The notes beneath the pieces were generated by a model. That model had not been told where the DNA came from, ran no database searches, and saw only the letters and a program-made list of their open reading frames with translations. A stretch of DNA of 64,000 bases from Planctomycetota bacterium (GTDB lineage: Bacteria; Planctomycetota; PLA2; JAEUHO01). The position numbers and the translations under genes were made by a program. Positions 6,026 to 56,210 of this stretch are shown here, in pieces; position 1 is the stretch's first letter; every line of letters starts with the position of its first letter. The stretch covers positions 4,612 through 68,611 of the forward strand of contig JASJAY010000001.1 of the NCBI GenBank assembly GCA_030066775.1. Reading direction: 5' to 3'.

Positions 6026-7030
6026 CTACTTGTCGCGATAGGGCTTGTGGCAGCGGACGCACAGGTCCTTCACGATCGCCAGCTTCTTGTCCGAGAGGTC
6101 GCGCGATGCCTCGTCACCGTCGATGTACGCCTTGACCGAGGTCTTGAGCTCCTTGACGCCCGTGACCGAATCCGCCATCCACTTGCGGTAGTCCGCGGGA
6201 CGCTTCGACGTGTCGGCCAACGCGTGCATCTGCTCGAACTGCTCGAAGAGCTTCGTCGTCTCGTTGACGGGATCGATGTCGGGGTGCGCCGCGTCGCTCT
6301 TCCAGCCGTTCTTCTTGAGCCACTTCACGTTGTCCCAGGTGCGCGTCATGTCGACCATGCCGGCGCGGAGCCCCGTGATCTCGTGCTTCGAGGGGAAGTC
6401 CCACTCGTACGCCTCGGTCTCCTTCGCCGTGGGCAGCGCGTCATTGGCGATGGACTTGTAGAGGCCGGTGTACTTGGCGGCCGTGCCGCACCACTGGCGC
6501 ATCTCGGCCAGCGCCAGCTCGCGGCTGGCGCCGTCGAGCAGGACGCGGCCCACGGCTGCGGCCGCGGGACCGCGGTGCTTGCCGTGGAAGCAGTGCACGT
6601 AGAAGGGACCCGGCAGCTCGCGGAACGTCTTCGCGATCTGCAGCATCTGCGCCTTCGACAGTCCGCCGTAGCGGATCGGCACGTGGACGTAGCGCATCCC
6701 GAGCTTCTCGGCGAGCTCGACGTTGGGCGCCTTGCCGTCCACGGAGAGGATCGTCTTCGCGCCCATCTTGGCGACGGCTTCGAGCGCCTCGTCCGTCAGC
6801 GGCTCACCGCCAGAGAGGATGTTCTCGGAGAGCTCGAAGACGTTGTGCAGGTCCTCGCGCTCGAAGGGCTCGACCTCGGGCAGCTCCGTGCGGCCGGCCC
6901 AGTCGTAAGCGGGCGTGCTGGACGCCAGCGGGGGCGGGACGGCGCCTGCCTCGGCCACCTGCTCGCTTCCGCACCCGGTCAGCGGGAGGGCCAGGAGGGC
7001 GGCGAGAGCGAGGGGAAGCGTGCGAATCAT
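6026..7030 (-). CDS. Lipoprotein with a PTP/DSP-like CX5R phosphatase signature and a C-terminal CXXCH motif
   Basis: Start MIRTLPLALAALLALPLTGC (lipobox LTGC) is internal to ORF 6026..7153. Contains VHCFHGKHRG (HCxxGxxR P-loop) and C-terminal LCVRCHKPYRDK (CXXCH). Confidence 0.6.
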   Translation of the reverse strand: MIRTLPLALAALLALPLTGCGSEQVAEAGAVPPPLASSTPAYDWAGRTELPEVEPFEREDLHNVFELSENILSGGEPLTDEALEAVAKMGAKTILSVDGKAPNVELAEKLGMRYVHVPIRYGGLSKAQMLQIAKTFRELPGPFYVHCFHGKHRGPAAAAVGRVLLDGASRELALAEMRQWCGTAAKYTGLYKSIANDALPTAKETEAYEWDFPSKHEITGLRAGMVDMTRTWDNVKWLKKNGWKSDAAHPDIDPVNETTKLFEQFEQMHALADTSKRPADYRKWMADSVTGVKELKTSVKAYIDGDEASRDLSDKKLAIVKDLCVRCHKPYRDK

Positions 7031-11077: not shown

Positions 11078-11155
11078 CGGGGCGTGGCGCAGATTTGGTA
11101 GCGCGCCTGAATGGGGTTCAGGAGGTCGCTGGTTCGAGTCCAGTCGCCCCGACCA
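11078..11155 (+). tRNA. tRNA-Pro (anticodon GGG), CCA encoded
   Basis: Cloverleaf read by hand. Acceptor CGGGGCG/CGCCCCG, D-stem GCGC/GCGC, anticodon stem CCTGA/TCAGG with loop ATGGGGT (U33, GGG, G37), T-arm GCTGG-TTCGAGT-CCAGT, discriminator A, then CCA. Confidence 0.8.
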
Positions 11156-39963: not shown

Positions 39964-41613
39964 CTAGAGCTGCTGGGTGATCTCGCCGAGGCGTTCGGTG
40001 AGCAGCGTGTTCTCGCGGTAGTCGATCGGGACCACGACCAGGCTCGGGCCGGGCTCGTTGAATGCGGCTTCCAGGGTGTCCCGAAGCTCCGCGCTCTTCG
40101 TGACACAGTGTCCGCTCCAGCCGAAGGCCTCGGCCAGCTTCGTCCAGCTCGGGTTGCCGAACGCGAGGTCGGTGTGGCGGTCGAACTCGTTGTCCTGCTT
40201 CCACGCGATCAGGCCGTAGCCGCCGTCTTCCCAGACCATCACGGTGATGTTGCTGTCGAGGCGGCGCGCGGTCTCCATCTCCTGCACGTTCATCAGGAAG
40301 CCGCCGTCGCCGGCGATGGCCAGCACGCGCCGATCGGGGTGGACCAGGCCGGCGGCGATGGCGCCCGGAAGCGCGAAGCCCATCGAGCAGAACCCGTTGG
40401 GGATCAGGCAGGTATTGGGCTCGTGGCAGTGGTAGTGGCGCGCGATCCACATCTTGTGTGCGCCGACGTCGGAGAGCAGCACGTCCTTCGGGCCCAGGAC
40501 CTGGCGCGCGTCCCAGAGGGCCTTCTGCGGCCGGATGAAGCCGTCCGTGTCGTCGTTCGCGTGCGTCGCGAGGTCTTCGCCCATGCGGCGGCGCATCTCG
40601 GCCTGGTAGCCGAGGTCGAGATCGAGCGGGGTGGTCTCGAGGCGCTCGTTGAAGGCCCACAGCGTGTGCTGGAGCTCGCCGATGAGCTCGACCTGCGGGT
40701 TGTAGTACTCGTCGATCTCGGCCGGGAGGAAGTCGGCGTGGATGATCGGCTTGTCGCCGTCCGCGTTCCACAGCCGCGGGTGGTACTCGACCATGTCGAA
40801 GCCGAGGGTGATCACGAGGTCGGACTCGTCGATCACCACGGCGGGCAGGTCCTTGGAGCCGAGGCCGATCGTGTAGAGGCACTGGGGCGCGTCCATGTCG
40901 ACCACGCCCTTCGCCATGAAGGTGCTGATGACGCCGATGCCGGTGCGCTCGACGAACGCGCGCAGCTGCGGGCCGGCGTCCTTCCGGATGCACCCGTTAC
41001 CGGCGAGGATCACGGGGCGCTTCGCGGCGGCGAGCATCGCCATCGCCTGGTCGATGATCTTGTCGTCCGGCACGTAGCGCCGGAACCGACGTACGGGCAT
41101 CGGCTCGGCGTCGGTCTCGTGCTTGGCCACGTCCTCGGGCAGCTCGATGTGCACGGCGCCGGGCTTCTCCGTGCGCGCGAGCCGCACGGCCTTGCGCAGG
41201 ATCTCGGGGATCGTGTCCGCGTTCACGATCGTGGTCGCCCACTTCGTGACGGGCCGGAACATGGAGACCACGTCCATGATCTGGTGCGACTCCTTGTGTA
41301 GCCGCTCGGTCGAGCCCTGGCCCGTGATCACGAGCATGGGGGCGAGGTCCATGTTCGCGTCGGCGACGCCCGTGATCAGGTTCGTGGCGCCGGGGCCGAG
41401 GGTGCCGAGGCACACCGCCGGATTGCCCGTCAGGCGGCCGTAGACCTCCGCCATGAACGCCGCGCCCTGCTCGTGGCGGGTGAGCACGAAGCGGATCGAG
41501 TCCGACTGCTCGAGCGACATCATGAAGTCGGCGTTCTCTTCGCCCGGGACGCCGAACACGTACTCGATGCCCTCGGCTTCCAGGCAGCGCACGATCAGGT
41601 CGGAGGCCTTCAT
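39964..41613 (-). CDS. Acetolactate-synthase-like thiamine-diphosphate-dependent enzyme
   Basis: 549 aa. N-terminal Pyr domain (YVFGVPGEEN...RHEQGAAFMAEVYGRLTG), and a C-terminal PP domain with the GDGGF/LMNVQE TPP-binding motif. Start MKASDLIVRCLEAEG is internal to ORF 39964..41736. Confidence 0.8.
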   Translation of the reverse strand: MKASDLIVRCLEAEGIEYVFGVPGEENADFMMSLEQSDSIRFVLTRHEQGAAFMAEVYGRLTGNPAVCLGTLGPGATNLITGVADANMDLAPMLVITGQGSTERLHKESHQIMDVVSMFRPVTKWATTIVNADTIPEILRKAVRLARTEKPGAVHIELPEDVAKHETDAEPMPVRRFRRYVPDDKIIDQAMAMLAAAKRPVILAGNGCIRKDAGPQLRAFVERTGIGVISTFMAKGVVDMDAPQCLYTIGLGSKDLPAVVIDESDLVITLGFDMVEYHPRLWNADGDKPIIHADFLPAEIDEYYNPQVELIGELQHTLWAFNERLETTPLDLDLGYQAEMRRRMGEDLATHANDDTDGFIRPQKALWDARQVLGPKDVLLSDVGAHKMWIARHYHCHEPNTCLIPNGFCSMGFALPGAIAAGLVHPDRRVLAIAGDGGFLMNVQEMETARRLDSNITVMVWEDGGYGLIAWKQDNEFDRHTDLAFGNPSWTKLAEAFGWSGHCVTKSAELRDTLEAAFNEPGPSLVVVPIDYRENTLLTERLGEITQQL

Positions 41614-41832
41614 CCGATGCTCCTCGGGGGGGCCATGATGGGGGCCGGCGAGTGCCTCACAAGCCCTTCCGCTGCCGTCCCGACGCCGCCCGGGAGGCCC
41701 ACGTTTCAGGGATTCGCCCCGCGAACGCCCCTCCAAGTTGAGACCGCGTTAAGAGATCGACCCCCCGGCGTGGCGCCGCCGCGGGGGTTCCCTACGGTCC
41801 ACCTGACGAGAGAGAGTGGTGAGGTCCGGTCC

Positions 41833-43791
41833 ATGGCGCTGCCCGCACGCCCCGTGCACAAGCTGTTCAGCTCCGGGAGCGTTGCGCTCGTCGGGTGGCG
41901 GGCCGAGGACGGCTGGCCGCTCGACTTCGTGTCGCCCAGCCTCCGAGACATCCTCGGGTTCGGCGCGGACGACCTGCTGAGCCAGGGCACCGGCCTCGAG
42001 AAGCTCGTCCATCCGAGCGATCTCGACGACCTCCGCGAGGCACACCGCGTGCACGTCGCGAGCTCGGCCGAGCGCTTCGATCCCGCCGACTTCCGGCTGA
42101 AGACCGCCGAGGGGCAGTGGCGGTGGGTGCACGCCTCGCTGACCATCGAGCGCGATGCCGAGGGCGGGGCGGCGCGTCTCTTTGGCTATCTGCTCGACGT
42201 GACGGATCGCAAGCGCGCGGAGACCGCGCTCGAGCGCCAGCGCCAGCGACTCGAGCTCGTGATCCAGGGGACGCGCCTCGGGATGTGGGACTGGAACCCC
42301 CAGACGAACGACGTGATGTTCAACGAGACGTGGGCGCAGATGCTGGGCTACGAGCTCAGCGAGATCACGCCGTCGCTCGAGGAGTGGGAGAGCCGCGTCC
42401 ACCCGGACGACCTGGCCGCCTGCTACGAGGACATCACGGCGCACATGGAAGGGCGCGTCCCGTTCTACGAGAACGTGCATCGGATGCGCCACAAGCGCGG
42501 GCACTGGGTCTACATCCTGGACCGCGGCCAGATCATGGAGCGCGACGAGCAAGGGCGGCCGACGCGCTTCACCGGCACCCACACCGACATCACGAAGGAG
42601 AAGCTCGCCGAGCTCGAGGCCAAGGAGGCGAACGACGCCAAGAGCCTCTTCCTTGCGAACATGTCGCATGAGATCCGCACGCCGCTCAATGGCGTGCTCG
42701 GCCTGGTGCAGCTGCTCGAGAGCACCGACCTCGACGCGGAGCAGCTCGATCACCTGCGCCTGATCCGCGAGAGCGGCGAGGGGCTCCTGACCGTCATCAA
42801 CGACATCCTCGACTTCTCGAAGATCGAGGCCGGCGAGCTGACTGTCGATCCGCACAGCTTCGATCTGGAGCGCGTGGTGCGCCGCGTCGCGGACCTGCAC
42901 CGCGAGGTCGCGTTCCGCAAGGGGCTGCAGCTCCACGTCGAGGCGCGTGGCGACATCCCGGACTGGATCATCTCGGACTCGCACCGCGTGCAGCAGGTGC
43001 TCATGAACCTCGTCTCCAACGCGGTGAAGTTCACCGAGGTGGGCAGCGTCTCGATCCACGTCGATGCGCAGCCGGCGACGGCGGGCATCCATGACCTGAA
43101 GATCCAGGTACGCGACACGGGCAAGGGCATCGAGGACGCGAGCGCGATCTTCGACAGCTTCCGCCAGGAGGACGCAGGCATCTCGCGTCAGTACGGCGGC
43201 ACGGGGCTCGGCCTTGCCATTAGCCGACGGCTCGCGGACCTGCTCGGCGGGGGGCTCGACGTCGAGAGCACGCCGGGCGAGGGATCGACCTTCACCCTGT
43301 GGCTGCCGGTCGAGGTGGGGGAGCCGGTTCCGGATCGAGTCCCCGGCAGCGCGTTCGAGACCACGGATCTCGAATCCCTGCGGATCCTCGTGGCCGAGGA
43401 CAACGAGGTGAACCAGGTCGTCGCGCAGAGCGTGCTCGAGAAGCTGGGTGCGCAGGTCGACATCGCCAAGAACGGCGCCGAGGCGGTTGCCGCGGTCGAG
43501 GAGGCGACCTACGACCTCGTGCTCATGGACATGCACATGCCGGAGATGGACGGTCTCGAGGCCGCGCGCCGGCTGCGGGCGCATCCGTCGACGATCCGGC
43601 TGCCGATCATCGCCCTCTCCGCTGATGCGCTGCCCGAGACGCGTGAGGCCTGCCTCGAGGCGGGCATGAATGCGTTCATGACCAAGCCCTTCGAGGTGGA
43701 GTTGCTCAGCGAGAGCATCCAGCAGGTGCTGGCGGCGCGCGCTGCCGACGCGGCCGATCTCGCCGCCGTGCGCCGGCGCTCCGCATCCTGA
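41833..43791 (+). CDS. Cytoplasmic hybrid sensor histidine kinase (PAS-PAS, HisKA, HATPase_c, REC)
   Basis: Two PAS-like blocks, H-box [17 protein letters not shown] boxes, and C-terminal receiver ([10 protein letters not shown]...[14 protein letters not shown]...K). No TM segment. Start is internal to ORF 41473..43791. Confidence 0.8.
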
Positions 43792-43825: not shown

Positions 43826-44974
43826 TCACTCGTACCGGAAGCGTCGCACGGCCAGCCAGCCGATGGCGAGTGCGCCGAGGGCCAGCAGCAGTGTGTTGCC
43901 GACGGCGCTGGCGGGACCGGCGCGGTAGTTCACGAGCTGGTGCATCGCATCCATGGCCCAGCCCGTGGGCAAGACGGTCGCGAGGCTCTGCATCGCGGGC
44001 GAGGTGACCTCGATCGGCCACCAGCAGCCGCCGAGCGCCGCCAGGACGTTGGCGGTCAGCACGCCCAGGCCGATGGCCTGCGACGCCGTGCGCGCGATGC
44101 AGCCGAGCAGCAGGCCGAGAGACGCGCAGAAGGCGGCCCAGGCGACGAGCACGAGCGCCACCATCAGCACGTCCGGGCCCCAGTCGAGGCCGAAGATCAG
44201 GGCGCCGAAGAGCATGGCTACGGCCACCTGCACGAGTGCCAGGAGCATGCGGCCGGCCCACTTGCCGAGCACGATCTCCCCGCGCGAGATCGGGGTGGAG
44301 GCCAGTCGACGCAGCAGGCCTTGCTCGCGCTCCACGACGAGCGTGGACGTGCCCGACGTGAGGAGCACGATCATCGTGAACATCACGAGGATGCCGGGGA
44401 TCGCCTGGTCGAAGCCGGTCGGGATCCTGCGCCGCTCGCCGGCGGGCCGGCTTACGAGCGTCAGCGCACGGGGCTTCGCCGCCAGCCGCGCGAACGACGC
44501 GGGCGTCGGCTCTTCACCCGCCTCGGCCGCCGCGACGACGTCCGCGAGCAGCGTGTACACGGCGCGCACGAAGCGCACCTCGTCCAGCTGGCTCGAGAGG
44601 TCGACCTCCCGGCGCTCGAGGGAGAGCGGGGTCGGCGTGCCGCCGAGGACGCGCTCCGTAAACCCGTCCGGGATCTGCAGACGACGGCCGTGCGATGCGA
44701 ACGTCGTCTCGTCCTCGGTGCGAACGACCTCGAACCCGTTCTCGTCGAGCCGCCGCTCGAGCTCGGCCACCAGGAAGCCCGGCGAGCCCTCCGCGCGCAC
44801 GGCAAGCGGGCGCTTCGCCTCACCGCCGCTCGTGAAGCCGCCGCCGCCGATGACCGTGCCGATGAAGTAGAAGAACACGATCGGCATCACGAAGATCCAC
44901 AGCAGCGCCTCCTTGCCGCGGATCGCGTAGAGGAAGTCCTTCGTGGCGATGAAGCGGGCGCGCTCGAAGCTCAT
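43826..44974 (-). CDS. ABC-2-type transporter permease
   Basis: 382 aa, 6 TM, ABC-2 family pattern. 4 nt overlap with the upstream permease gene. Confidence 0.7.
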   Translation of the reverse strand: MSFERARFIATKDFLYAIRGKEALLWIFVMPIVFFYFIGTVIGGGGFTSGGEAKRPLAVRAEGSPGFLVAELERRLDENGFEVVRTEDETTFASHGRRLQIPDGFTERVLGGTPTPLSLERREVDLSSQLDEVRFVRAVYTLLADVVAAAEAGEEPTPASFARLAAKPRALTLVSRPAGERRRIPTGFDQAIPGILVMFTMIVLLTSGTSTLVVEREQGLLRRLASTPISRGEIVLGKWAGRMLLALVQVAVAMLFGALIFGLDWGPDVLMVALVLVAWAAFCASLGLLLGCIARTASQAIGLGVLTANVLAALGGCWWPIEVTSPAMQSLATVLPTGWAMDAMHQLVNYRAGPASAVGNTLLLALGALAIGWLAVRRFRYE

Positions 44975-46209
44975 GACGCCCTCGCAAACCGCTTCGACAG
45001 CGTGCGCGATGCGAGCGCGAACAAGAGCAGGCCAACCGCGAGCATGCCCAGCAGCGGGACCAAGAGCTCCGTGGGCGCGGTGCGTTCGAGCAAGAGGTCC
45101 TTGAGCTGCGCGACGGACCATCCGTTGGGCGTGAAGCGGCCGACGGCGGCAAGGCCCTTCGGCATCATCTCGGCGGGGAAGAAGCTGCCGCCGACCATCA
45201 AGAGCGGGAACGCGATCGCGTTGGTGAGGATCTGTCCGGCGCGCGGGGTCCGGGTGGCCATCTGGATCCAGCACATGAGCACGAGCAGCACGCCGCCCGT
45301 CACCGCGCACCAGACGACGGCCACCGGCAGCACGCGCCACGGCAGATCGAGATAGAACGTGCCGATCGCCATCAGTACGAGGGCGAGCACGCCCGCAATG
45401 ACGACGCCCGCCATCAGCTTGCCGGCGAAGAGGCCGCCGACGCCGCCCGGCGCGCTGACCGCACGGCGCAGCGTGCCCATGCTGCGTTCCCGCCACATGT
45501 CCTCGCTCAGACCCGTCGCGAAGAAGAGGAGAGCCATGAGCACGATGCCCGGCAGGAAGAGCACGGACACGTCGACGCTCGGCGCCTGTGCGTCGGTCGC
45601 CGTGTCGGCCTCCAGCACGGGCGGAAGCAGATAGCGCTCGACGCGGCGGAAGACGCCGTTCACCGCCACGCTGATGCGCGTGACCTCTTCGTCGCTCGGC
45701 GTGGCTTCGAGTCCGCCCATCTCGTCGACGATGCCGCGGATGTCATCGCCGACGATCCGCTGCATGTAGAAGACGACGTCGACGAGCACCCGGAGCGTCT
45801 CCTCGGCGATCTGGGGCAGGATCGACTGTGCGGGGTTGGTAACGAGCTCGAGCTCCGACGGCGTGTCCTCGAGGACCGCCTGTCCGAAGCCCTCGGGGAT
45901 CAAGAGCAGGGCGCTCGCCTCGCCTTCGTCGAGTCGTTTGCGACCTTCGTCCAGCGGGACGCGCTCGCTGTCGAGCACGCGCAGCTCCTCGCGCGCGAGC
46001 AGCCCCACGAAGAGCTCGCTCAAGAAGCTCCCGTCCTCGTCGGCAACGAGGAGCTTTGCGCGCGGCGGGGCCTCGCCGACGTCGCCGAACGCGAGCGTGA
46101 TGAGCGCGCCGATCAGGATCGGGATGCCCAGCCACAGCGCCAGCGCCATCGGATCCTTCGCTTGCCGCGACAGGTCCTTCGCGGCGGCGTGGAGCGCCAT
46201 GCGGCTCAC
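44971..46209 (-). CDS. ABC-2-type transporter permease
   Basis: 412 aa with an N-terminal TM, a large extracytoplasmic loop and a C-terminal TM bundle. Overlaps the ATPase gene by 4 nt. Confidence 0.7.
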   Translation of the reverse strand: MSRMALHAAAKDLSRQAKDPMALALWLGIPILIGALITLAFGDVGEAPPRAKLLVADEDGSFLSELFVGLLAREELRVLDSERVPLDEGRKRLDEGEASALLLIPEGFGQAVLEDTPSELELVTNPAQSILPQIAEETLRVLVDVVFYMQRIVGDDIRGIVDEMGGLEATPSDEEVTRISVAVNGVFRRVERYLLPPVLEADTATDAQAPSVDVSVLFLPGIVLMALLFFATGLSEDMWRERSMGTLRRAVSAPGGVGGLFAGKLMAGVVIAGVLALVLMAIGTFYLDLPWRVLPVAVVWCAVTGGVLLVLMCWIQMATRTPRAGQILTNAIAFPLLMVGGSFFPAEMMPKGLAAVGRFTPNGWSVAQLKDLLLERTAPTELLVPLLGMLAVGLLLFALASRTLSKRFARAS

Positions 46210-47135
46210 TCGCGCAGCTCCTTGCCCGTCAGCTTGATGAAGAGCGTCTCGAGGCTGGGCTCGGTCAGCGTGGTCTGGCGGATCTCGCTGCCCGCTGTGG
46301 TCAGCGCATCGAAGAGCGCCGGCAGCCGAGACGAGGCGTCGCGTAGCGCAAGCCGCAACGCGTCCGGCTCCACCTGCACGACCTCGACGTCGTCCACGGC
46401 GCCGAGCGCCTGCTCCACGGCGGCCGCATCGAAGTGCCCGGTGAGCTGCAGCAGGTCCCGCTCGCCGACCTGGCCGCGCAGCTCCTCGAGGGTGCCGTTC
46501 GCGATGAGCTTGCCGCGGTCGATGATCGCGAGGCGGTCGCAGAGCTGCTCCGCCTCCTCCATGTAGTGCGTCGTGTACAGCACCGTCGTGCCGTCGGCCA
46601 CGAGCGTCTTGACCATCTCGAACAGGCGCACGCGCGACTGGGGGTCCACGCCCACCGTCGGCTCGTCGAGCAGGACGACCTTGGGCCGGTGCACGATCGC
46701 GCAGCCGAAGTTGATGCGGCGCTTCATGCCGCCGCTGTACTGGCTCACCGGTTCCTTGGCCCGATCCGCGAGCCCCGTCGTGGCGAGCACGTCGCGCACG
46801 CGCGTCGTCAACGTGCTGCCGCGCAGCCCGTATGCCGCACCCCAGAACCGCAGGTTCTCGGTTGCGGAGAGATCCTCATAGAGCGCCATCTCTTGGGGTA
46901 CGACGCCTAACTGCTCGCGTGCGGCGCGACGCTCCACGACCACGTCCTTGCCGAGCACGCGCACGCGGCCGGCCGTGGGCTCGAGCAGACCGGAGATGCA
47001 GCCGATCGTGGTCGATTTGCCCGCACCGTTGGGTCCAAGCAGTCCGAAGATCTCGCCGGGTGCCGCCGTGAAGCTCACGTCGTCGACGGCGACGAAGCTG
47101 CCGTAGTGCTTCTCGAGTCGCTCGACGTCGATCAC
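46206..47135 (-). CDS. ABC transporter ATP-binding protein
   Basis: Walker A GPNGAGKST, signature YSGGMKRR, Walker B VVLLDEPT. Confidence 0.85.
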   Translation of the reverse strand: MIDVERLEKHYGSFVAVDDVSFTAAPGEIFGLLGPNGAGKSTTIGCISGLLEPTAGRVRVLGKDVVVERRAAREQLGVVPQEMALYEDLSATENLRFWGAAYGLRGSTLTTRVRDVLATTGLADRAKEPVSQYSGGMKRRINFGCAIVHRPKVVLLDEPTVGVDPQSRVRLFEMVKTLVADGTTVLYTTHYMEEAEQLCDRLAIIDRGKLIANGTLEELRGQVGERDLLQLTGHFDAAAVEQALGAVDDVEVVQVEPDALRLALRDASSRLPALFDALTTAGSEIRQTTLTEPSLETLFIKLTGKELRE

Positions 47136-47342: not shown

Positions 47343-48734
<1,392 letters not shown>

Positions 48735-48942
48735 TCCGACCGCGACCCGTTGTGTCCGGCCATTCGAGCCCACGCGGCAAGGTTCTGTTTCGAGATGCGG
48801 GCTAGGTGAAATTACGCAAAACGCGTGTAAGCACGCGGTCTGTGGAAACCCCATGGAGAAGCCTGCGGAGTCGCGTGGGCATTTGCGTTCCCACCAAGTG
48901 TTCCTGGGTTCCCAAAGTCGGAACCCCAACGCGCGAACGAGG

Positions 48943-49023
48943 TTGTGTGCACTGTGCACGAGCAATCCACAATTTGGGTGGGGTGTGTCGTGCTCACATG
49001 AGTCGCGTGCGCATTGTGCACAA
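48943..49023 (+). promoter_or_regulatory. Candidate enhancer (UAS): tandem and palindromic TGTGCAC sites
   Basis: ttgTGTGCACTGTGCACgag at 48943..48962 and cattGTGCACaagc (TTGTGCACAA, 10 bp palindrome) at about 49012..49025. These lie 90 to 170 bp upstream of the candidate -24/-12 element. A third TTGTGCAC sits at about 49195. Confidence 0.3.
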
Positions 49024-49113
49024 GCGAAGTGCATCGGGGCGCAAAGTGCGTGAAAACGTGGTTAACGGTCGATTGGCGGCCGCTCTCAAAAAAAGTGCGA
49101 AGTGGAGGAGCAT

Positions 49114-49129
49114 TGGTCCAGCCGTTGCT
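49114..49129 (+). promoter_or_regulatory. Candidate sigma-54 (-24/-12) promoter
   Basis: tGGtccagccgtTGCt. GG and GC are separated by exactly 10 nt with a TTGC -12 element (consensus TGGCAC-N5-TTGCW). An A-tract just upstream (caaaaaaag) could be an IHF/bending site. Confidence 0.35.
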
Positions 49130-49139
49130 CTCTACCTCC

Positions 49140-50440
49140 CGTCCGAAACGGACAACGATCTTTGACAGCACTGGCGATCGGACGAGACGACTAGTTGTGC
49201 ACCGATGAGTGGCGGTGCCGGGCAGCGGGCCCGGGATCTGCTGCTGCGCAACGGCGGGAAGTCGTGGATCGAGCGCACTTGTCAGACCCGACGCGCGCTG
49301 ACGAAGCGAAGGGGCAGCAATGTCCTGGAGCGGAAGCGGAGCGCGGACGTGATGACAAGGCGGAGCTGGTGGCAACACCGGCGCCCGGCGTGAACCACAT
49401 CCAATTCGTTGGCCTTCCTTTCCGCCGTAGCGGACGGAGCATCGTCTGCTGAAAGGTGAGAAACCTCACGAGAGCTGGGGGTCCGGAGACGGACCACCCG
49501 ACTCGCTCGAGCCCGAGACCCTGAGACCCGGATGGATAGGGACGTCACCCCATCCAAGGGTGCGAGGGGAGGCTCCGCGACCAAAGCGCGGGCCAGGTCG
49601 AGCGGGAGCACGCTCTGGAGAGGAACGGAACCTCAAGACGGGATCGGCGGCCGGAGCCGACGGGGGCTTGCCCCTGGACGCCCCGGTGCTGAACGGACTC
49701 GCCGCGGGAACAAGGCCCTGAAGGCGACTGCCGGCTAAAGCTCCACACCTCCGGGTGGCGGGGCGGCAGCTGGCGGCAACGGCAAGAGGGCAGGGACTCC
49801 GAGAGGAGCACCCATCGCGGTCGAGGGGAACCCCGTGAAGAGTGAAGCCCATGGGCGCTCCAGCGCGCTTGACGTGCTGGGAGGCGTGCGGTGCCGAAAG
49901 GTGCCGGGGGCCGCAAGGCCTAGTGGTGTACGCCGCGAAGGAGGTAGCCAAACCTCGCACGTGGCACGCGACGGCGGAGGGATCCGCCGTCATGACGCGG
50001 GACCACCGCGCTGACACTGTGCCGTAGGGCAGACAAAGTCCAGGAGAGGAAGCGAGGCTCCGAGCCCGGAGCGTGGCGCAAGCCGCGTGAACGGGGACGG
50101 GTCACGCCGACTCGCGAATGTCGTCCTCTGAAGGGGCGCGAAAGCGCATGGAGGGTCGCTCGAAGGCTTCGGCCGACGGGCAGCTCCACGATCGAAGACC
50201 CGAAGGGCGTTGAACGTCGAACGGGTAGGGCGGAACCCATAGCCGTCCTAGAGCGTGGAGCGTGTGTCCTCGAAGTGCCGCGGAACCCCATGAGAGGCAG
50301 CGAAGCCGGGCCGCAAGGTCCGGGGGAGCAGACACTGCGACTCGAAAACCTCTGGAGGACCGGAACAACTGGTCATCGACTCCGTCGTCAGGCTTCATCG
50401 GCCCGGGGCGTGGGCAACCACGCTCCGGGCTCTTTTCAAT
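49140..50440 (+). ncRNA. Candidate long (~1.3 kb) structured non-coding RNA
   Basis: No credible ORF in any frame. Very dense in short perfect hairpins with GNRA/CUUG loops, for example gtgag-aaac-ctcac (49458), ggtcc-ggagac-ggacc (49481), gggg-cttg-cccc (49664), ggcc-gcaa-ggcc (49908), gcgc-gaaa-gcgc (50136), ccgggcc-gcaa-ggtccgg (50305). Bounded by the candidate promoter and an intrinsic terminator. Confidence 0.3.
50401..50440 (+). terminator. Rho-independent terminator (plus strand)
   Basis: gcccggggcgtgg-gcaa-ccacgctccgggc, a 13 bp stem (one G.U) with a GNRA loop, followed by tcttttcaatt. Confidence 0.55.
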
Positions 50441-50751
50441 TGTGGACGCATCCGAGATCGAAACGCGCATGGATGCGGTACCGATGGGTGAGCACCATTG
50501 GCGATAGGGCGCCCACAAGGGGCGCCCCCTACTACCACATGTCATCGCGGTGGGGGGCACCACGCCGACGTCCAACGCGCCGATCGTCGTGAACGGCACG
50601 ACACACTTTCGTCGGCCATGCGTGATCGCGGGCGGTAGTAGGGGGCGGCCCTTGTGGCCGCCCTGGCGCCATGGGTGGCCTGCAACCCCGGGTTCCCATA
50701 CGCGTTTCGTCGGGTTGATGTTCGATCCACAGTGGCGTGGATCAACGCGCC

Positions 50752-51783
50752 CTACACGATGCCGAGGTCTTCGGACTCGTCCTTGTAGGCGCGACGCATG
50801 AGGGAGGTGACGACCTCGAGGGGCTCCTTGCCCTCGTTGATGACGAGGTACATCTCCTCGGTGATCGGACCCACGAGACCGTGCTTGTGGATGAGATCGC
50901 GGATTGCGCCCACGCTCTTCGCACCCTCGGCGACCTGCTGCATGCTGGCCATGATGTCCGTGACCTGCTCGCCGCGTCCGATGCGCTCGCCGAAGGTGCG
51001 GTTGCGGCTGGCCTTCGAGTAGCAGGTCGTCATCAGGTCGCCCAGACCGCTGAGTCCGAAGAAGGTCTCGCGCTTGCCGCCGAGCGCGACGCCGAGTCGC
51101 GCCATCTCGAGCAGCCCGCGGGAGACCAACGCCGCCTTCGCGTTGACCCCCAGGCGCATGCCGTCGCACATGCCGGCCGCCAGCGCGATGACGTTCTTGA
51201 GCACGCCGCCGAGCTCGACGCCGATGAGGTCGGGATTCGAGTAGGCGCGGAACGCATCGCCGGAGAGCGTCGCCTGGATGCGTCGCGAGAGATCGAGCGA
51301 GGCGCTCGACACGACCGTGGCCGCCGGCTTGCCCTCCGCAATCTCGCGCGCGATGTTCGGACCGGACAGGACCGCGATCGTGTGCTTCGGTCCGGCCACC
51401 TCCGCGAGCACCTGGGTCGGACGCATCAGCGTGCCCTGCTCGAGGCCCTTCGAGACGCTCACGATCGGCAGGTCCTCGGGGACGCTCTGCGCATGCTGCG
51501 CCCACACGTCGCGCAGGAACGTGGTGGGCACCGCCGAGATCAGCAGGTCCGCGCCGTCGACCAGGTCGGTGAAGCGGCTGCAGACCCGCACACCCTCGGG
51601 TAGGTCGAAGCCGGGGAGGTAGCGCGGGTTGTGCCGGCTCTCCTCCATCAGCGCCGCGTAGTGCGCGTCGTACGACCAGATCGCGACGTCGTGGCCCGCA
51701 GCGCGGAGCAGCATCGCCAGCGCGGTGCCCCAGCCGCCGTCGCCCACGACCACGATCTTCTCGAACGGTTGGACGGCGTTCAC
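50752..51783 (-). CDS. gpsA: NAD(P)H-dependent glycerol-3-phosphate dehydrogenase
   Basis: N-terminal Rossmann motif VVVGDGGWGTALA. GpsA-specific blocks (LSGPNIAREIAEGKPAATVV; GLSGLGDLMTTCYSKASRNRTFGERIG). Probable GTG start internal to ORF 50752..51912. Confidence 0.85.
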   Translation of the reverse strand: MNAVQPFEKIVVVGDGGWGTALAMLLRAAGHDVAIWSYDAHYAALMEESRHNPRYLPGFDLPEGVRVCSRFTDLVDGADLLISAVPTTFLRDVWAQHAQSVPEDLPIVSVSKGLEQGTLMRPTQVLAEVAGPKHTIAVLSGPNIAREIAEGKPAATVVSSASLDLSRRIQATLSGDAFRAYSNPDLIGVELGGVLKNVIALAAGMCDGMRLGVNAKAALVSRGLLEMARLGVALGGKRETFFGLSGLGDLMTTCYSKASRNRTFGERIGRGEQVTDIMASMQQVAEGAKSVGAIRDLIHKHGLVGPITEEMYLVINEGKEPLEVVTSLMRRAYKDESEDLGIV

Positions 51784-51811: not shown

Positions 51812-52501
51812 TCAGAGCTTCTGATCGGCGTCGCCGACCCGGCGCTCCGTGCCCCGCAGCACGCGCTGGATGTTGCTGCGATGACTCCACACGACGAAGC
51901 CCGCCATGACAAGCAAGAAGGCGAAGACGACGAAGCGTGCGTGGAAGGTGTCGGCGCCGTTGTCGAGCCAGTACGACAGCGGCATCATCACCATCGCCGC
52001 GATCGAGCCCATGCTCATGTAGCGGGTGATGCCCAGGATCATGCCCCACGCCCCGAGGCCGGCGAGGGACGAGAGCGGCGCGAGGGCCGTGACGACCCCG
52101 AACATGGTCGCGACGCCCTTGCCGCCGCGGAAGCGCAGATACGGCGTGAACACGTGGCCGAAGATCGCGGCCGTGCCGGTGATGACCTGCAGCGCGAGGC
52201 CTGTGCTCTCCGAGTCGAGCACGCGGCCGACGGCCGCGGCGGCCTCCACCGAGAAGAGCGCGACGAAGAGTCCCTTGCCGAAGTCGAGCGCGAACACGAC
52301 GACGAACATCGCGATCGAGCGCCAGCCGGACCACTGCCGGGCGCAGTTCGTGGCGCCCACGCCGCCGCTCCCGACCTTGCGCAGATCCACGCCCTTGAAC
52401 GTGCGCGCCATGATCCAGCCGAACGGAATGCCCCCGATGAGGTACGCAGCAACGGCGAGGAGGATCTCGGCGGTCGGCGTTCCCATGCTGATGAAGGCCA
52501 T
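51812..52501 (-). CDS. plsY: Glycerol-3-phosphate acyltransferase PlsY
   Basis: About 229 aa membrane protein with PlsY motifs (GSGGVGATNCAR; FRGGKGVAT). Lies upstream of and co-directional with gpsA. Confidence 0.8.
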   Translation of the reverse strand: MAFISMGTPTAEILLAVAAYLIGGIPFGWIMARTFKGVDLRKVGSGGVGATNCARQWSGWRSIAMFVVVFALDFGKGLFVALFSVEAAAAVGRVLDSESTGLALQVITGTAAIFGHVFTPYLRFRGGKGVATMFGVVTALAPLSSLAGLGAWGMILGITRYMSMGSIAAMVMMPLSYWLDNGADTFHARFVVFAFLLVMAGFVVWSHRSNIQRVLRGTERRVGDADQKL

Positions 52502-52674
52502 GCGGGCTCCTGTGTCCGTCGGGGGCGGACCGTCGTCAAGATACCCCTGACGTGACCGTTCGGCAGCCTCCAGGCCCAGTGCGTGAACACGACGGCCATT
52601 CCGGCCGGCCGATGGTGCCTGACACGGCGCGACGCTAGGCTCACACGCCACCTCAGGGAAGGAGACCCCGGCCC

Positions 52675-54642
52675 ATGCCGCCCGCGCATCCGATCCGGCT
52701 CGGCGTCGACACGGGCGGCACCTTCACCGACGTCGTCTGGACGGGGCCGTCGGGGCGCGGGGTGAAGAAGCTCGCGTCCACGCCCGACGATCCGGCCCGG
52801 GCCGTGCTCGACGGCGTGGCCGCGGTCACGGGCGCGCTCCCTGCCGGTACGCCGTACACGGTGCACCACGGAACGACCGTGGGCACGAACGCCGTACTGA
52901 CGCGCGGCGGGGCGCGGGTCGTGCTGGTGACCACCCGCGGCTTCGAGGCGCTGCTCGCCGTCGGGCGTGGTCAGCGCGAGGGACTGCACCGCATGGCCCC
53001 GCGTCGCGTCGCGCCGTTGGTCGAGGTCGCGAATTGCGTGGGCGCAGAGGAGCGCATGGGCGCCGACGCGCGTCCGGTCCAGTCGCTGACGTCGGCTGCC
53101 CTCGATCGGCTCGCCGCCGCGGTTGAACGCCGCCGGCCGGAGGCGGTGGCGGTGTGCCTGCTGCATGCGCCGCGCAACGCCGCACACGAGAGGCGGATCG
53201 TGAAGCGATTGCGCGACGTGTGCCCCTACGTGTACGCATCGGCCGCGAGCTCGCCCGACCCGCGCGAGGTGGAGCGTGCGACGACCACGGTGCTCGATGC
53301 CTACGTCGCGCCGCTGGTCGCGCGCTACGTCGCGTCGCTGGCCGACGCGCTGCCGCCGGACGCGCTGACGATCCTGCGTTCCGACGGCGGTCGCATGGCC
53401 GTCACCGAGGTGCGCGCGTCGCCCGTGCGGACGCTGCTCTCCGGACCGGCGGCCGGCGTTGCGGCAGCCCGCGTCCTCGCCGCGCGACACGGCTTGCCGC
53501 GCGTGCTCACGTTCGACGTCGGCGGGACCAGCACGGACGTCGCCTGGGTCGAGGGCGGCGCGGCGCCGCTCGGCTCCGAGCTGCACGTCGGCCCCTTCGC
53601 CGCGGGCGTGCCGTCCGTGCCCATCGAGACCGTCGGGGCGGGCGGCGGGAGCGTGGTGCGCGTCGACAGCGGTGGTGCGCTTCGCGTCGGCCCCGAGAGC
53701 GCCGGGGCGGCGCCGGGTCCCGCCTGCTACGGACGCGGGGGGCCCTTCGCGTTGACCGATGCGTGGCTCCTGCTCGGACGCATCCCCGACGCGCTGCTGG
53801 GCGGCGACTTCGCGCTCGACCGCGCCGCCGCACGCCGTGCCGCGGCACGCGTCGCGAAGGCCGCGGGCCTCAGCGTGCCGGCCCTCTGCCGCGGGGCCGT
53901 CGCCGTGGCGGCGACCACCACCGCACGCGCGCTGCGCCTCGCGTCCGCCGCCCGCGGCCACGATCCGCGCGATGCGGCGCTGCTCGCCTTTGGCGGTGCG
54001 GGTCCCGTGCTGGCGTGCGACACGGCCGATCAGCTCGGCATGCGCGACGTGCTGGTGCCCACCGATCCGGGCACGTTCGCCGCATCCGGTGCGCTGGCCG
54101 CCCCGCTGCGCGCGGACGCGTCTGCGCTGGCGCCCGCGAAGGGTGGCGAGACGGCGCTCGACCGCGTCGGCAAGCGGCTACGGCGCGAGGTGGAGACGCG
54201 GCTCTTGGCCGAGGGGGCGCGCGGGCCCTTGCGCTTCGTCGAGGAGGTCGACGCGCGCTACGCGGGGCAGGCCTTCGAGGTGACGGTCGCACGCGACGGG
54301 TGGCGCGAGCGGTTCCACGACCGCCACGAGGCGCGATACGGCTTCGCCGACGCGCGCCGCCCGGTCGAGTGCGTGCGCCTGCGTGTCCGCGCGGAAGGCG
54401 ACGACCATCCGGGCGCGCGGCCCTCGGACGCGCACGTGGCCGCGCCGCGCCACGTGCGGACGCGGCGCCTTGCGCGGGATGCGAAGGGGGTCGGCACCTG
54501 TGCCCGCAGCACCTTGTCGCCGGGCGATCGCGTGCGCGGGCCCGCGCGCATCGACGAGGTGTCCGGGACGAGCTTCGTGCCTGACGGATGGAGCGCCGTG
54601 TGCCTCGGCGACGCCGCGCTGCGGATCGGGAGGACGCGATGA
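52675..54642 (+). CDS. hyuA: Hydantoinase/oxoprolinase family protein, A subunit (N-methylhydantoinase A-like)
   Basis: N-terminal IRLGVDTGGTFTDVV and internal FDVGGTSTDVAWVE match the Hydantoinase_A family. 655 aa. Confidence 0.85.
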   Translation: MPPAHPIRLGVDTGGTFTDVVWTGPSGRGVKKLASTPDDPARAVLDGVAAVTGALPAGTPYTVHHGTTVGTNAVLTRGGARVVLVTTRGFEALLAVGRGQREGLHRMAPRRVAPLVEVANCVGAEERMGADARPVQSLTSAALDRLAAAVERRRPEAVAVCLLHAPRNAAHERRIVKRLRDVCPYVYASAASSPDPREVERATTTVLDAYVAPLVARYVASLADALPPDALTILRSDGGRMAVTEVRASPVRTLLSGPAAGVAAARVLAARHGLPRVLTFDVGGTSTDVAWVEGGAAPLGSELHVGPFAAGVPSVPIETVGAGGGSVVRVDSGGALRVGPESAGAAPGPACYGRGGPFALTDAWLLLGRIPDALLGGDFALDRAAARRAAARVAKAAGLSVPALCRGAVAVAATTTARALRLASAARGHDPRDAALLAFGGAGPVLACDTADQLGMRDVLVPTDPGTFAASGALAAPLRADASALAPAKGGETALDRVGKRLRREVETRLLAEGARGPLRFVEEVDARYAGQAFEVTVARDGWRERFHDRHEARYGFADARRPVECVRLRVRAEGDDHPGARPSDAHVAAPRHVRTRRLARDAKGVGTCARSTLSPGDRVRGPARIDEVSGTSFVPDGWSAVCLGDAALRIGRTR

Positions 54643-56210
54643 GTCGTCGCGACGACCCGGTGGCGCTGGCGCTCACGCGCGACTTGCTCGAGAGCGTGGC
54701 CGAGGAGATGGCGGCCGTGTGCATCCGCACCGCCGTGTCCCCGAACGTGAAGGACCGCCGCGACCTGAGCGCGGCCGTCTTCGATGCCAAGGGCGTGATG
54801 GTCGCCCATGCCGCGCACATCCCCGTGCACCTCGGCGCGATGCCCCTGTCCGTGCGCGCCGTGCTCGACACGTGCCCGCTCGAGCCCGGGGACGTCGCGC
54901 TCGTGAACGACCCGTACGCCGGCGGCACGCACCTGCCCGACATCACGGCCGTGCGCGCCGTCTTCGATCCCGCGACCCAACGCCGTGCGTTCCTCGTCGC
55001 GGTGCGCGCGCACCATGCCGACGTCGGCGGCGCGGTTCCCGGCTCGATGGCGCCGGCCGACGACGTGTACGCCGAGGGCCTGCGCATCCCGCCGGTCCGC
55101 TGGGTCGTGAACGAGACGCCGGATCCCGGCGTCACCTCCCTGCTGCTCTCGAACATGCGCGACGCGGACGAGCGGCGCGGGGACTTGGCCGCCCAGGCCG
55201 GCGCGCTGCGGCTCGGCGAACGCCGCTTGCGCGAGCTCGCCGCGGGCGCCGGCGGCCTCACGCGATTGGCGCGACGCGGCGCTTCGCTCGTGCGCTACGC
55301 CGGGCGGTTAGCCGCCGCGGCGCTCGAGCGATTGGCCGACGGCAGCGCGAAGGCGCGGCTCGACCTGGAGGTCGACGGCGTCGACGGCAAGCCCGCGCGC
55401 GTCGCCGTGCGACTCACCAAGCAAGGCACGCGTCTGACCGTCGACTTCAGCGGGACGACAGGGCCGGTCGGCATGGGCTTGAACGCGCCACGCGCCGTCA
55501 CCCAGAGCGCCGTCTACTACTTCGTGCGCTGCCTCTGTCCGGACGGGACACCGACGAACGACGGGCTGATGGAGCATGTCGACGTCGTGGTGCCCGACGG
55601 CTGCCTGCTGGCCGCACGCCCGCCCGCGCCGGTCGCGGGCGGCAACGTCGAGACGAGTCAGCGCGTCGTCGACGCCCTCTGGCTCGCAGCGGCGCGGCTG
55701 TGGCCGGGCCGGGTGCCCGCGCCCGGCTGCGGCACGATGTCGAACTGGACCTTCGGCCGTGCGCCCGACGGGCCGCCGATGCCCTCGTACTACGAGACGA
55801 TCCCCGGTGGGGCCGGCGGGGGTCCCGACGGGGCCGGCGCCGACGCGATCCAGCAGCACATGACGAACACGCGCGGCACGCCGGTCGAGGTGCTCGAGGC
55901 GCGCTGGCCGGTGCGCGTCGAGCGGCTGGCCCTCCGGCCGCGGAGCGGCGGAGCCGGCAAGCAGGCGGGCGGGCGCGGCGTGATCCGCGAGGTCCGCTTC
56001 CTCGAACCGGCCGTCGTCTCGCTGATGATGACGCGCCACGCCACGCCCCCGCCGGGCGTCGCCGGCGGCAAGCCCGGACGCGCGGGCCGCGTGACGCTCG
56101 TGCGCGGCGGTCGGGCCCGCCGCCTCGACCCCCGAGCGCGCGTGGACATCCGCCCCGGCGACGTGCTCCGGATCGAGACCCCGGGTGGCGGTGGTTGGGG
56201 GCGCCCTTGA
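54639..56210 (+). CDS. hyuB: Hydantoinase B/oxoprolinase family protein (N-methylhydantoinase B-like)
   Basis: HyuB-family blocks (VNDPYAGGTHLPDIT; GCGTMSNWTFG). ATGA overlap with hyuA. Start is internal to ORF 54588..56210. Confidence 0.85.
   Translation: MSRRDDPVALALTRDLLESVAEEMAAVCIRTAVSPNVKDRRDLSAAVFDAKGVMVAHAAHIPVHLGAMPLSVRAVLDTCPLEPGDVALVNDPYAGGTHLPDITAVRAVFDPATQRRAFLVAVRAHHADVGGAVPGSMAPADDVYAEGLRIPPVRWVVNETPDPGVTSLLLSNMRDADERRGDLAAQAGALRLGERRLRELAAGAGGLTRLARRGASLVRYAGRLAAAALERLADGSAKARLDLEVDGVDGKPARVAVRLTKQGTRLTVDFSGTTGPVGMGLNAPRAVTQSAVYYFVRCLCPDGTPTNDGLMEHVDVVVPDGCLLAARPPAPVAGGNVETSQRVVDALWLAAARLWPGRVPAPGCGTMSNWTFGRAPDGPPMPSYYETIPGGAGGGPDGAGADAIQQHMTNTRGTPVEVLEARWPVRVERLALRPRSGGAGKQAGGRGVIREVRFLEPAVVSLMMTRHATPPPGVAGGKPGRAGRVTLVRGGRARRLDPRARVDIRPGDVLRIETPGGGGWGRP

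Follow-up and report, generated by a model that had tools for sequence, protein, structure and literature searches.

A large structured RNA probably encoded downstream of a sigma-54 activator gene in uncultured Planctomycetota

The 64,000-nt stretch of planctomycetotal DNA analysed here (the window) contains a gap between two genes, that of a sigma-54 enhancer-binding protein (EBP) and gpsA. An earlier note, made from the letters of the window alone, had placed in this gap a long structured non-coding RNA (ncRNA) with a sigma-54 promoter, plausibly under the control of the EBP. This core proposal is upheld by conservation, covariation, the lack of a coding signal, the linkage to the EBP gene and transcripts found in the environment. 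Judging from the compared sequences, positions 49140–50441 of the plus strand are probably a stand-alone gene for a large structured ncRNA, which would be the output of the adjacent EBP. The features of the locus are given in Table 1.

Table 1. Features of the EBP–gpsA locus, in positions of the window.
Feature	Position	Strand	Remarks
EBP gene	47343..48734	+	Sigma54_activat (1e-69), AAA_lid_14, HTH_8
Gap between EBP gene and gpsA	48735–50751		Flanking genes convergent
Conserved upstream region, candidate enhancer (upstream activating sequence, UAS)	48839..49024	+	Nine orthologous upstream regions aligned
Tandem GTGGA(A/G)A boxes	48841–48861	+	Common to the nine upstream regions
Palindrome 1, GTGGG-N10-CCCAC	48875–48894	+	TGGG-N10-12-CCCA across orthologues; common to the nine regions
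Tandem TGTGCAC TGTGCAC	48946..48959	+	More copies at 49015–49022 and 49196–49202; specific to the window
TCCACAA box	48965–48972	+	Common to the nine upstream regions
Palindrome 2	about 48975–48998	+	Common to the nine upstream regions
GCGCATTGTG box	49007–49024	+	GCGCA(C)ATTGTGGAG across orthologues; common to the nine upstream regions
GTGGAG box	49102–49107	+	Just 5' of the -24/-12 promoter
Sigma-54 -24/-12 promoter, TGGTCC-N5-TTGCT (TGGTCCAGCCGTTGCT)	49114–49129	+	GG at 49115–16, GC at 49127–28
Predicted 5' leader	49140..49166	+	Variable hairpin 49140–49153, then conserved AACGAUCUUUGAC 49154–49166
Structured ncRNA, predicted mature form	49167..50395	+	1,229 nt here; 1,053–1,100 nt in most relatives
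Terminal helix P1	49167–49177 with 50385–50395	+	Covaries at two positions
Helix P2	49196–49198 with 50365–50367	+	
Domain D1	49201–49457	+	
Domain D2	49464–49623	+	
Domain D3	49632–49842	+	
Domain D4	49847–50030	+	
Domain D5	50038–50360	+	
3' trailer and intrinsic terminator	50396..50441	+	Hairpin 50400–50431, 14 pairs, GCAA loop, then CTTTTCAATT
gpsA, NAD(P)H glycerol-3-phosphate dehydrogenase	50752..51774	-	Pfam; convergent neighbour, synteny context, no functional part

The gap had been described as lower in GC at its 5' end and as devoid of a plausible open reading frame (ORF). The GC content measured over 48700–49200 is indeed 0.57–0.60. From about 49200 to 50400 the plus strand has an excess of purines, with a GC skew of +0.09 to +0.17 and an AT skew of +0.2 to +0.37; this composition is typical for structured RNAs. 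Many ORFs can be called mechanically in the gap, with stop-free stretches of 183–351 codons in high-GC sequence, and ORFs are also called over the region in the related loci L076 and L137 and in many short contigs. Yet the period-3 power of the variation between species is only 2.2–3.3 times the median in the RNA region, against 132 in gpsA and 154 in the EBP gene. Indels have the size of helices and do not come in multiples of three, no Pfam domain is matched by the called ORFs, which vary in frame and length between species, and compensatory base-pair changes are pervasive. One or several missed protein-coding genes are thus next to impossible, and this reading was rejected for the lack of 3-nt periodicity. 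Public gene calls put 'hypothetical proteins' of 281–523 aa antisense to the RNA region; at L076 6901–7746 (minus strand), L137 2683–4254 (minus strand) and in P0121–P0155 the lengths are 190–534 aa. All of these antisense proteins are almost certainly spurious.

The structure was examined in an alignment of 49 sequences that are 57–71% identical to the window. Of the 234 pairs predicted by RNAalifold, 162 show compensatory double changes. In a structure of 313 pairs in 54 helices, P1 included, 93.4% of the alignment cells are paired, compared to 39–44% when the partners are slid by 1–3 columns. Changes on both sides occur in 211 of the 313 pairs (81–103 in the slid controls), and the covariation score is 0.39 (0.07–0.09 in the slid controls); none of 500 shuffles reached the observed values. 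An independent mutual-information scan gave 19 predicted pairs among its 22 top pairs, long-range ones included. The plus strand folds to -676.8 kcal/mol, which is 78 kcal/mol better than its complement (-598.8 kcal/mol), and folding of a 300-nt piece gave z = -3.2 relative to dinucleotide shuffles. The earlier description of the region as dense in hairpins with GNRA and CUUG loops agrees with these covarying helices, and its proposal to set covariation against codon periodicity was decided by the 211 compensatory pairs on one side and the missing periodicity on the other.

Domains D2 to D5 and several inner segments are closed by one and the same module, which consists of a stem, a 3x3 internal loop and a second stem. 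The strands of the loop are GNA and ANG. About ten copies are present, and their orientation flips between clades. The terminal loops are mainly GNRA or UUCG, CUUG being present as well, with invariant loops including ACGU, AGCCAA and AACCCAUR. Long stretches of invariant unpaired nucleotides are also found (GGACGUCA, GUGAAGCCCAUGG, GGUAGCCAAACC, GUCGUAGGG and CCAGGAGAGGAAG). No convincing pseudoknot was found: a search for covarying stacks that do not fit the nested structure turned up nothing but alternative pairings of segments that already had a partner, in a test that is confounded by the split of the sequences into two clades. Pairing of UCUUUGA in the leader with the conserved loop GAUCAAAGC was considered and dropped, as variants occur in L088 and L117 without compensation. 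In L137, weak secondary matches to a covariance model of the D5 core lie upstream in the same RNA, at 3799–3980 (E 0.013) and 3684–3760 (E 0.063), which hints at an origin of the domains from the stem, 3x3 loop, stem module by duplication within the RNA.

A single strong intrinsic terminator was found on the plus strand of the gap. It is a GC-rich hairpin followed by a U-tract, the stem of which covaries between species by compensatory changes, with the T-run kept in eight loci. The terminator and its GCAA loop had been recognized in the earlier note, where the stem was counted as 13 pairs instead of 14. Downstream of the RNA in L001, at about 6460–6640 (minus strand), the terminator hairpin GGAGCATGGGAAACCATGCTCCGGG and its tail occur in three tandem repeats.

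At the other end of the gene, TGGTCCAGCCGTTGCT is the sole match to TGGYNC-N5-TTGCW in the 64 kb. Its GG and GC are spaced by exactly 10 nt and it is near to the consensus TGGCAC-N5-TTGCW. The assignment of a sigma-54 promoter, as had been proposed at this position, is convincing because each of the nine aligned upstream regions keeps a GG-N10-GC element in the homologous position, those of the distant L076 and L077 (TGGCACGCGGGGTGCGA) among them. Simple scans found no sigma-70-like promoter in the gap. By the established geometry of sigma-54 promoters, the spacing from the -12 element predicts a start of transcription at about 49139–49141. The sequence UCUUUGAC was considered as a promoter element and rejected, as it is located inside transcripts.

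Copies of TGTGCAC upstream of the promoter had been regarded as likely enhancer sites. Their local enrichment is real, as five of the ten copies in the window fall in 48946–49202. They are however not conserved: at these positions the orthologues have TGTCCAC, or ATTGTGGAG / TTGTGGAG, and the copy at 49196 sits within the RNA, in the region of helix P2. On the alignment, the TGTGCAC repeats are window-specific variants of TGTCCAC and TTGTGGAG boxes rather than conserved palindromes, and they were rejected as an enhancer. The conserved upstream elements are instead the TGGG-N10-12-CCCA palindromes, together with the GTGGA(A/G)A and TCCAC boxes.

The presumed activator of the RNA gene is the EBP. 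Its N-terminal ~140 aa form an atypical domain, and the rest of the protein comprises an AAA+ domain, in which a GAFTGA loop is present, and a helix-turn-helix of the Fis type. The N-terminal domain has no Pfam match even at E ≤ 10; it is REC-like in pattern, but has VLIVGRGG where an acidic pair is expected. About 90 full-length orthologues of the EBP were found at 54–71% identity, all in metagenome-assembled genomes (MAGs) of uncultured Planctomycetota, as are the closest relatives of GpsA (60–73% identity). The EBP of the window itself is recorded at NCBI as a protein of a planctomycetotal MAG. The named hosts of the RNA are likewise uncultured Planctomycetota only, with no myxobacteria.

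The DNA of the gap was matched by nhmmer in L001, L003, L004, L005 and L009 (E 1e-56 to 1e-146), and a profile search added L076, L077, L133 and L137. Over eight genomic loci the mean identity of the RNA is 66%, near the 70–71% of the flanking coding genes. The RNA is conserved at the nucleotide level within a clade of uncultured Planctomycetota. One copy is present per genomic locus. Upstream sequence is available for ten genomic loci (the window, L001, L004, L005, L009, L076, L077, L133, L137, and L003 via P0004). In all ten, the RNA is directly preceded by an orthologous EBP gene of the same orientation; the distance from its end to the RNA is 350–480 bp across the genomic loci. The gene gpsA is mostly downstream and convergent, with extra genes between it and the RNA in L003, L076 and L137. 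The linkage between the RNA and gpsA is loose, and the invariant unit is the pair formed by the EBP gene and the RNA.

Two relatives have a shorter spacer, with only 460 bp (L078, 6282–6739) and 324 bp (L136, 6534–6857) between the EBP gene and gpsA. No RNA was detected in either by nhmmer or by covariance model. Their EBPs are more distant, at 47–53% identity. They keep GTGGAAAAC, TGGGAAT..ATTCCCA and TCCACAA boxes and a TTGG element resembling a -24 box, and the TTGC of the -12 box is degenerate. By these traces, the RNA gene seems to have been lost naturally in L078 and L136, the enhancer region being retained. Since these close relatives have lost the gene, the RNA would be dispensable.

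The RNA was also found in environmental samples. A scan of a metagenome collection with a 29-nt motif of D5 returned 57 environmental contigs, of which 47 are near-full-length (1,010–1,170 nt); about 50 independent contigs are the RNA itself. The samples with the RNA are estuarine, marine, soil, rhizosphere and groundwater transcriptomes. Among the 47 contigs, the 5' ends cluster at 49170–49180 (23 contigs) and the 3' ends at 50388–50396 (28 contigs), both being in the clusters in 16 contigs. The leader is reached by nine contigs, and about nine enter the terminator, before which most stop. Because the clustered ends are unlike those of random genomic fragments, the contigs are taken to be assembled transcripts. 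This agrees with the existence of chimeras, in which L122 is joined to eukaryotic large-subunit (LSU) rRNA (1057–1134) and L138 to bacterial RNase P RNA (1825–2073). The chimeras are a proof of RNA origin and at the same time a caution about contig ends. By eye, the 3' tail of L143, in the RNA sense, is fused to a 23S-like fragment. The RNA is evidently abundant in environmental transcriptomes, and, compared with the predicted primary transcript, the abundant species appears to have been shortened at its 5' as well as its 3' end. Removal of the leader is consistent with its presence in only nine of the contigs. Of the ends that had been predicted earlier, 49140 and 50436, the former is retained as the approximate predicted start, but the ends of the RNA in environmental transcripts are at about 49167–49176 and 50389–50395.

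Such an RNA could also be a cis element with no function in trans, either a long 3' untranslated region (UTR) belonging to the EBP mRNA or a buffer for gpsA, of the antisense or terminator kind. It has the same orientation as the EBP gene, a few contigs reach upstream of the predicted start, and one may regard crcZ as the 3' UTR of cbrB. The RNA however has a conserved promoter and a terminator to itself, EBP and gpsA sequence is missing from all 47 near-full-length contigs, and other genes precede gpsA in L003, L076 and L137. A UTR would not need structural conservation on such a scale, and this explanation is highly improbable.

Two contigs, L121 and L135, are circularly permuted, with terminal redundancies of 120 and 123 nt, the 3' end of the RNA being joined to its 5' end. 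The junctions read ...UCGUCAGGCUU/AGCACUGACGA and ...GGGCUU/AAGCACUGACGA; they put the ends at the equivalents of A49166/49167 and at ...GGCUU, and the 5' junction nucleotides agree within 1 nt. These two independent contigs, and the fact that P1 brings both ends side by side, are what a covalently closed circular RNA made by ligation of the P1-held ends would give. The ~45 other contigs are however linear with clustered ends, whereas circles should break randomly. The junction of L135 keeps the whole terminator and that of L121 does not, which is inconsistent, and template switching by reverse transcriptase or a ligase artefact on a very abundant RNA would look alike. A circular mature form is hardly probable. 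Nor does the RNA resemble a replicon of the viroid or Obelisk type, as it is encoded between host genes on MAG contigs that are chromosomal and up to 625 kb long, has no coding signal, and is permuted in only two of about 50 contigs. The arrangement is that of bacterial rRNA precursors, the ends of which are paired in a processing stem with removal of the flanking leader and trailer. The ends of the gap RNA would likewise pair in P1 and its leader and trailer be removed, at cleavage positions derived from contig ends and two junction reads only.

The gap was compared to the 4,227 families of Rfam 15 at gathering and permissive (E ≤ 10) thresholds. As the earlier note had asked for this comparison, it can be answered that there is no match at the gathering threshold and nothing better than E = 2 at the permissive one; the RNA stays unassigned to known families. 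A new family is proposed for it, of which the type-I members (1.05–1.3 kb) have P1 formed by AAGC(A)CUGACGA / UCGUCAGGCUU, five domains and UCUUUGAC in the leader. Their closure is the stem, 3x3 GNA/ANG loop, stem module, and they carry the motif CCUCGMAG-N2-CCG-N3-AAY-N2-CA-N-GMGAG. All these features are present in the window. The UCUUUGA of the leader is found in all type-I loci, and also in relatives of 1.6–2 kb.

A covariance model termed R1 was built for the D5 core (180 positions). It matches L137 at 124 bits and gives full-length matches at 37–59 bits in L104, L106, L107, L119 and L138; over 60 gpsA loci from other phyla gave no match. L139, L143 and L144 were not matched by R1; they are linked only by blastn to larger contigs that were. 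The similarity of L104, L106, L107 and L119, which came from the same scan, is distant only, as is that of L138–L148, recovered through the similarity of spurious ORFs. Protein searches with such ORFs returned transcript-sized contigs only. The larger relatives measure 1,604, 1,696, ~1,757 (at least 5 samples), ~1,890 and ~1,945 nt (4 samples), and overall reach 2.07 kb. Those of ~1,757 and ~1,945 nt were each assembled to a constant length across samples, and their k-mer coverage reached 113x. Common to the larger relatives are a composition rich in purines, a hairpin at the 5' end with GYUCUUUGAC after it, and nhmmer matches in collinear order. When the 1.6–2 kb relatives were added to the structure as fragments with MAFFT, ~50% of the pairs were formed, which is no better than the slid control. 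No known RNA family of Rfam was matched in the larger relatives, apart from RNase P in the chimeric tail of L138; the only match to LSU rRNA is the chimeric tail of L122. Literature searches found no description of the RNA, which is rated as a new class on a known type of regulatory wiring.

The succession of an EBP gene and an ncRNA gene is shared by luxO–qrr1 and glrR–glmY, and also by cbrB and crcZ, the RNA of which has ~400 nt. The crcZ gene lies immediately downstream of cbrB and needs RpoN and CbrB; CrcZ is also processed from a cbrB-crcZ transcript, and is more abundant and stable than the cbrB mRNA (PMC5113210). The likeness lies in the ncRNA gene being directly 3' of, and co-oriented with, an NtrC-family EBP gene, and in the sigma-54 promoter. 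Whereas CrcZ sequesters Hfq/Crc through repeated A-rich motifs, the gap RNA has 1.05–1.3 kb, is rich in GC and purines and forms ~50 covarying helices. It is not a sponge of the CrcZ/CrcY type, with no such Rfam match at E ≤ 10, a GC content of 65–72% and no A-rich (AANAANAA) repeats on reading. The nrsZ gene is flanked by ntrC and PA5126, arranged tail to tail, and has an RpoN promoter (TGG-N9/10-TGC); NrsZ is processed, consists of repeated modules, measures at least 226 nt with three simple stem-loops, and base-pairs with rhlA (PMC4253122). The geometry is the same as that of the EBP gene, the RNA and the facing gpsA, but the gap RNA exceeds NrsZ 5–9 times in size, its multi-branch domains are nested, and no seed is evident in it.

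The earlier note had drawn a parallel to Pxr of myxobacteria. The pxr gene is downstream of nla19, with a predicted sigma-54 promoter in a spacer of 262 nt, and yields long and short processed forms; Pxr is 108 nt long with three stem-loops (SL1 and SL2 conserved), the next gene being a 'predicted NADH dehydrogenase' (PMC5568312, where Pxr is described from myxobacteria only). The location downstream of an EBP gene with its own sigma-54 promoter is indeed the same, which is a shared architecture and does not speak for homology. The lineage is different, and the neighbour of pxr is not named gpsA. Compared to the published description, the gap RNA has 1,229 nt and 54 helices and is planctomycetotal. 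Homology to Pxr was dropped, because the gpsA and EBP relatives are planctomycetotal and Pxr has only 108 nt (PMC5568312). Relative to the known EBP-linked RNAs, which are simple and of 100–400 nt, the gap RNA is 3–10 times larger, and its 1.9-kb relatives up to ~18 times.

The gap was also negative for sponges of the CsrB/RsmZ type, GGA being present in two of eleven conserved terminal loops (AGGGAU and GCCCGGGAU) with no Rfam match, and for the models of group I and II introns, RNase P, transfer-messenger RNA (tmRNA), 6S RNA, signal recognition particle (SRP) RNA and rRNA. A comparison in kind is with OLE, GOLLD, ROOL, HEARO and raiA RNAs, which are also large, multi-domain and covarying with many conserved unpaired nucleotides, and were found from comparative or metatranscriptome data. 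Their covariance models matched neither the gap nor the larger relatives. The phylum is another, and the gap RNA has an adjacent sigma-54 activator and no phage, tRNA or membrane-protein gene context. OLE has about 600 nt, ROOL about 580 nt and GOLLD about 800 nt, and the gap RNA is larger. To our knowledge, no described class of structured bacterial ncRNA is larger, rRNA apart.

ROOL, GOLLD and OLE reportedly form RNA-only homo-oligomeric particles in a cryo-EM study. The gap RNA could self-assemble into such a particle or cage, given its comparable or greater size, its ornate multi-domain architecture, and the many conserved hairpin and internal loops that are available for kissing contacts. 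There is however no homology to ROOL, GOLLD or OLE by the Rfam models and no phage or tRNA context, the D5 motif having 0 matches in viral contigs (IMG/VR). An RNA-only cage is quite unlikely.

Other features of the neighbourhood were recorded. Between the terminator and gpsA, 50459–50709 forms a nested imperfect palindrome with arms of 57 nt (50493–50549/50621–50677, 79% complementary) and outer arms of 14 nt (50459–50472 and 50696–50709). Its core GGGCGCCCCCTACTACC is found again at 56190–56206 and the element is partly shared with L001; it may be similar to repetitive extragenic palindromic (REP) sequences or miniature inverted-repeat transposable elements (MITEs). Upstream of the EBP gene are a hybrid histidine kinase gene (PAS-PAS-HisKA-HATPase-REC, 41473–43791, plus strand) and a three-gene ABC-2 transporter operon (43826–47135, minus strand). 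The kinase could feed the EBP; the kinase and transporter neighbourhood is not conserved in L076 or L137. In the window gpsA is followed by plsY, and the order gpsA-plsY, then a divergent hydantoinase/oxoprolinase gene, is kept in several loci (window 51812–54642; L077; L137). A long ORF at 52039–53961 (minus strand) has no Pfam match, overlaps the genes of the gpsA-plsY/hydantoinase region and is probably spurious. The sole Rfam match at the gathering level in the window is a tRNA gene at 11078–11152.

The following course of events can be proposed for the RNA. A signal would be read by the atypical N-terminal domain of the EBP, which would bind the conserved palindromes or GTGGA boxes 100–280 bp upstream and drive a start by sigma-54 RNA polymerase at ~49140. 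The primary transcript, of ~1.3 kb, would run from about 49140 to about 50440 and end at the terminator. Trimming of the leader (~27 nt) and of the trailer (~45 nt) would then leave a stable RNA closed by P1, from 49167 to 50395. Some read-through from the EBP gene followed by processing would also be possible, as in cbrB-crcZ.

As to function, the regulatory wiring and the recurrent loop modules led to the tentative guess, held at rather less than even odds, that the RNA acts in trans as a scaffold of a ribonucleoprotein (RNP) or as a protein-sequestering particle, as the dedicated output of the EBP and not as a base-pairing small RNA (sRNA). Candidates for repeated contact sites are the 3x3 internal loops of the GNA/ANG kind, which recur ~10 times. 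Alternatively, the RNA could have no role as a regulator and be a ribozyme, or else form the core, catalytic or structural, of an RNP machine. It has been argued for OLE and other large ornate RNAs that a tertiary fold which is both complex and conserved implies either chemistry or scaffolding of a precise kind, and the family has lengths of 1.05–2.07 kb, ~50 helices, long invariant unpaired stretches, precise maturation of the ends like that of stable RNAs, and a high abundance in transcriptomes. There is however no likeness to any ribozyme family of Rfam, a housekeeping catalyst would not usually have an inducible sigma-54/EBP promoter, and the loss of the gene in L078 and L136 makes it dispensable; a catalytic or machine-core function is unlikely. 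It is a rather doubtful proposal that the RNA is the founding member of a new superfamily of very large (1.05–2.07 kb) ornate bacterial RNAs, that a dedicated sigma-54 activator gates its synthesis, and that, instead of being a conventional sRNA, it works as a ribozyme, as an assembly of RNA only or as the core of an RNP machine and may be circularised by way of its terminal helix.

Several points weigh against the view that the EBP has its output in this RNA, as a scaffold or a sequestering particle. The promoter match taken alone is not significant, as 0.29 matches are expected and at least one is present in 25 of 100 shuffles. The upstream boxes are also kept in the RNA-less relatives L078 and L136, where they may serve the EBP otherwise, for example in autoregulation. 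Contig ends are a proxy for RNA ends, and the contigs L108 and L123 reach upstream of the expected start site. The metatranscriptome origin of the contigs is itself deduced from their geometry and from the chimeras. Neither arrays of GGA loops of the CsrA type nor A-rich Hfq motifs were found in the RNA, and its size and the number of its conserved unpaired nucleotides would suit a ribozyme or an assembly of RNA only just as well.

Each new class of rare large folded bacterial RNAs, such as OLE, GOLLD and ROOL, has opened new biology and structural principles. For the present one, the defined ends and ~50 diverse sequences are usable for structure modelling, and L078 and L136 provide a natural "knockout" lineage without the RNA. 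Public annotations mislabel the locus as hypothetical proteins. The dedicated sigma-54 activator and promoter are a built-in experimental handle that should allow controlled expression. The design in which an EBP gene is followed by its own sigma-54-dependent ncRNA, known from CrcZ, NrsZ and Pxr, would also be extended to the Planctomycetes–Verrucomicrobia–Chlamydiae (PVC) group, with an RNA that is an order of magnitude more complex.

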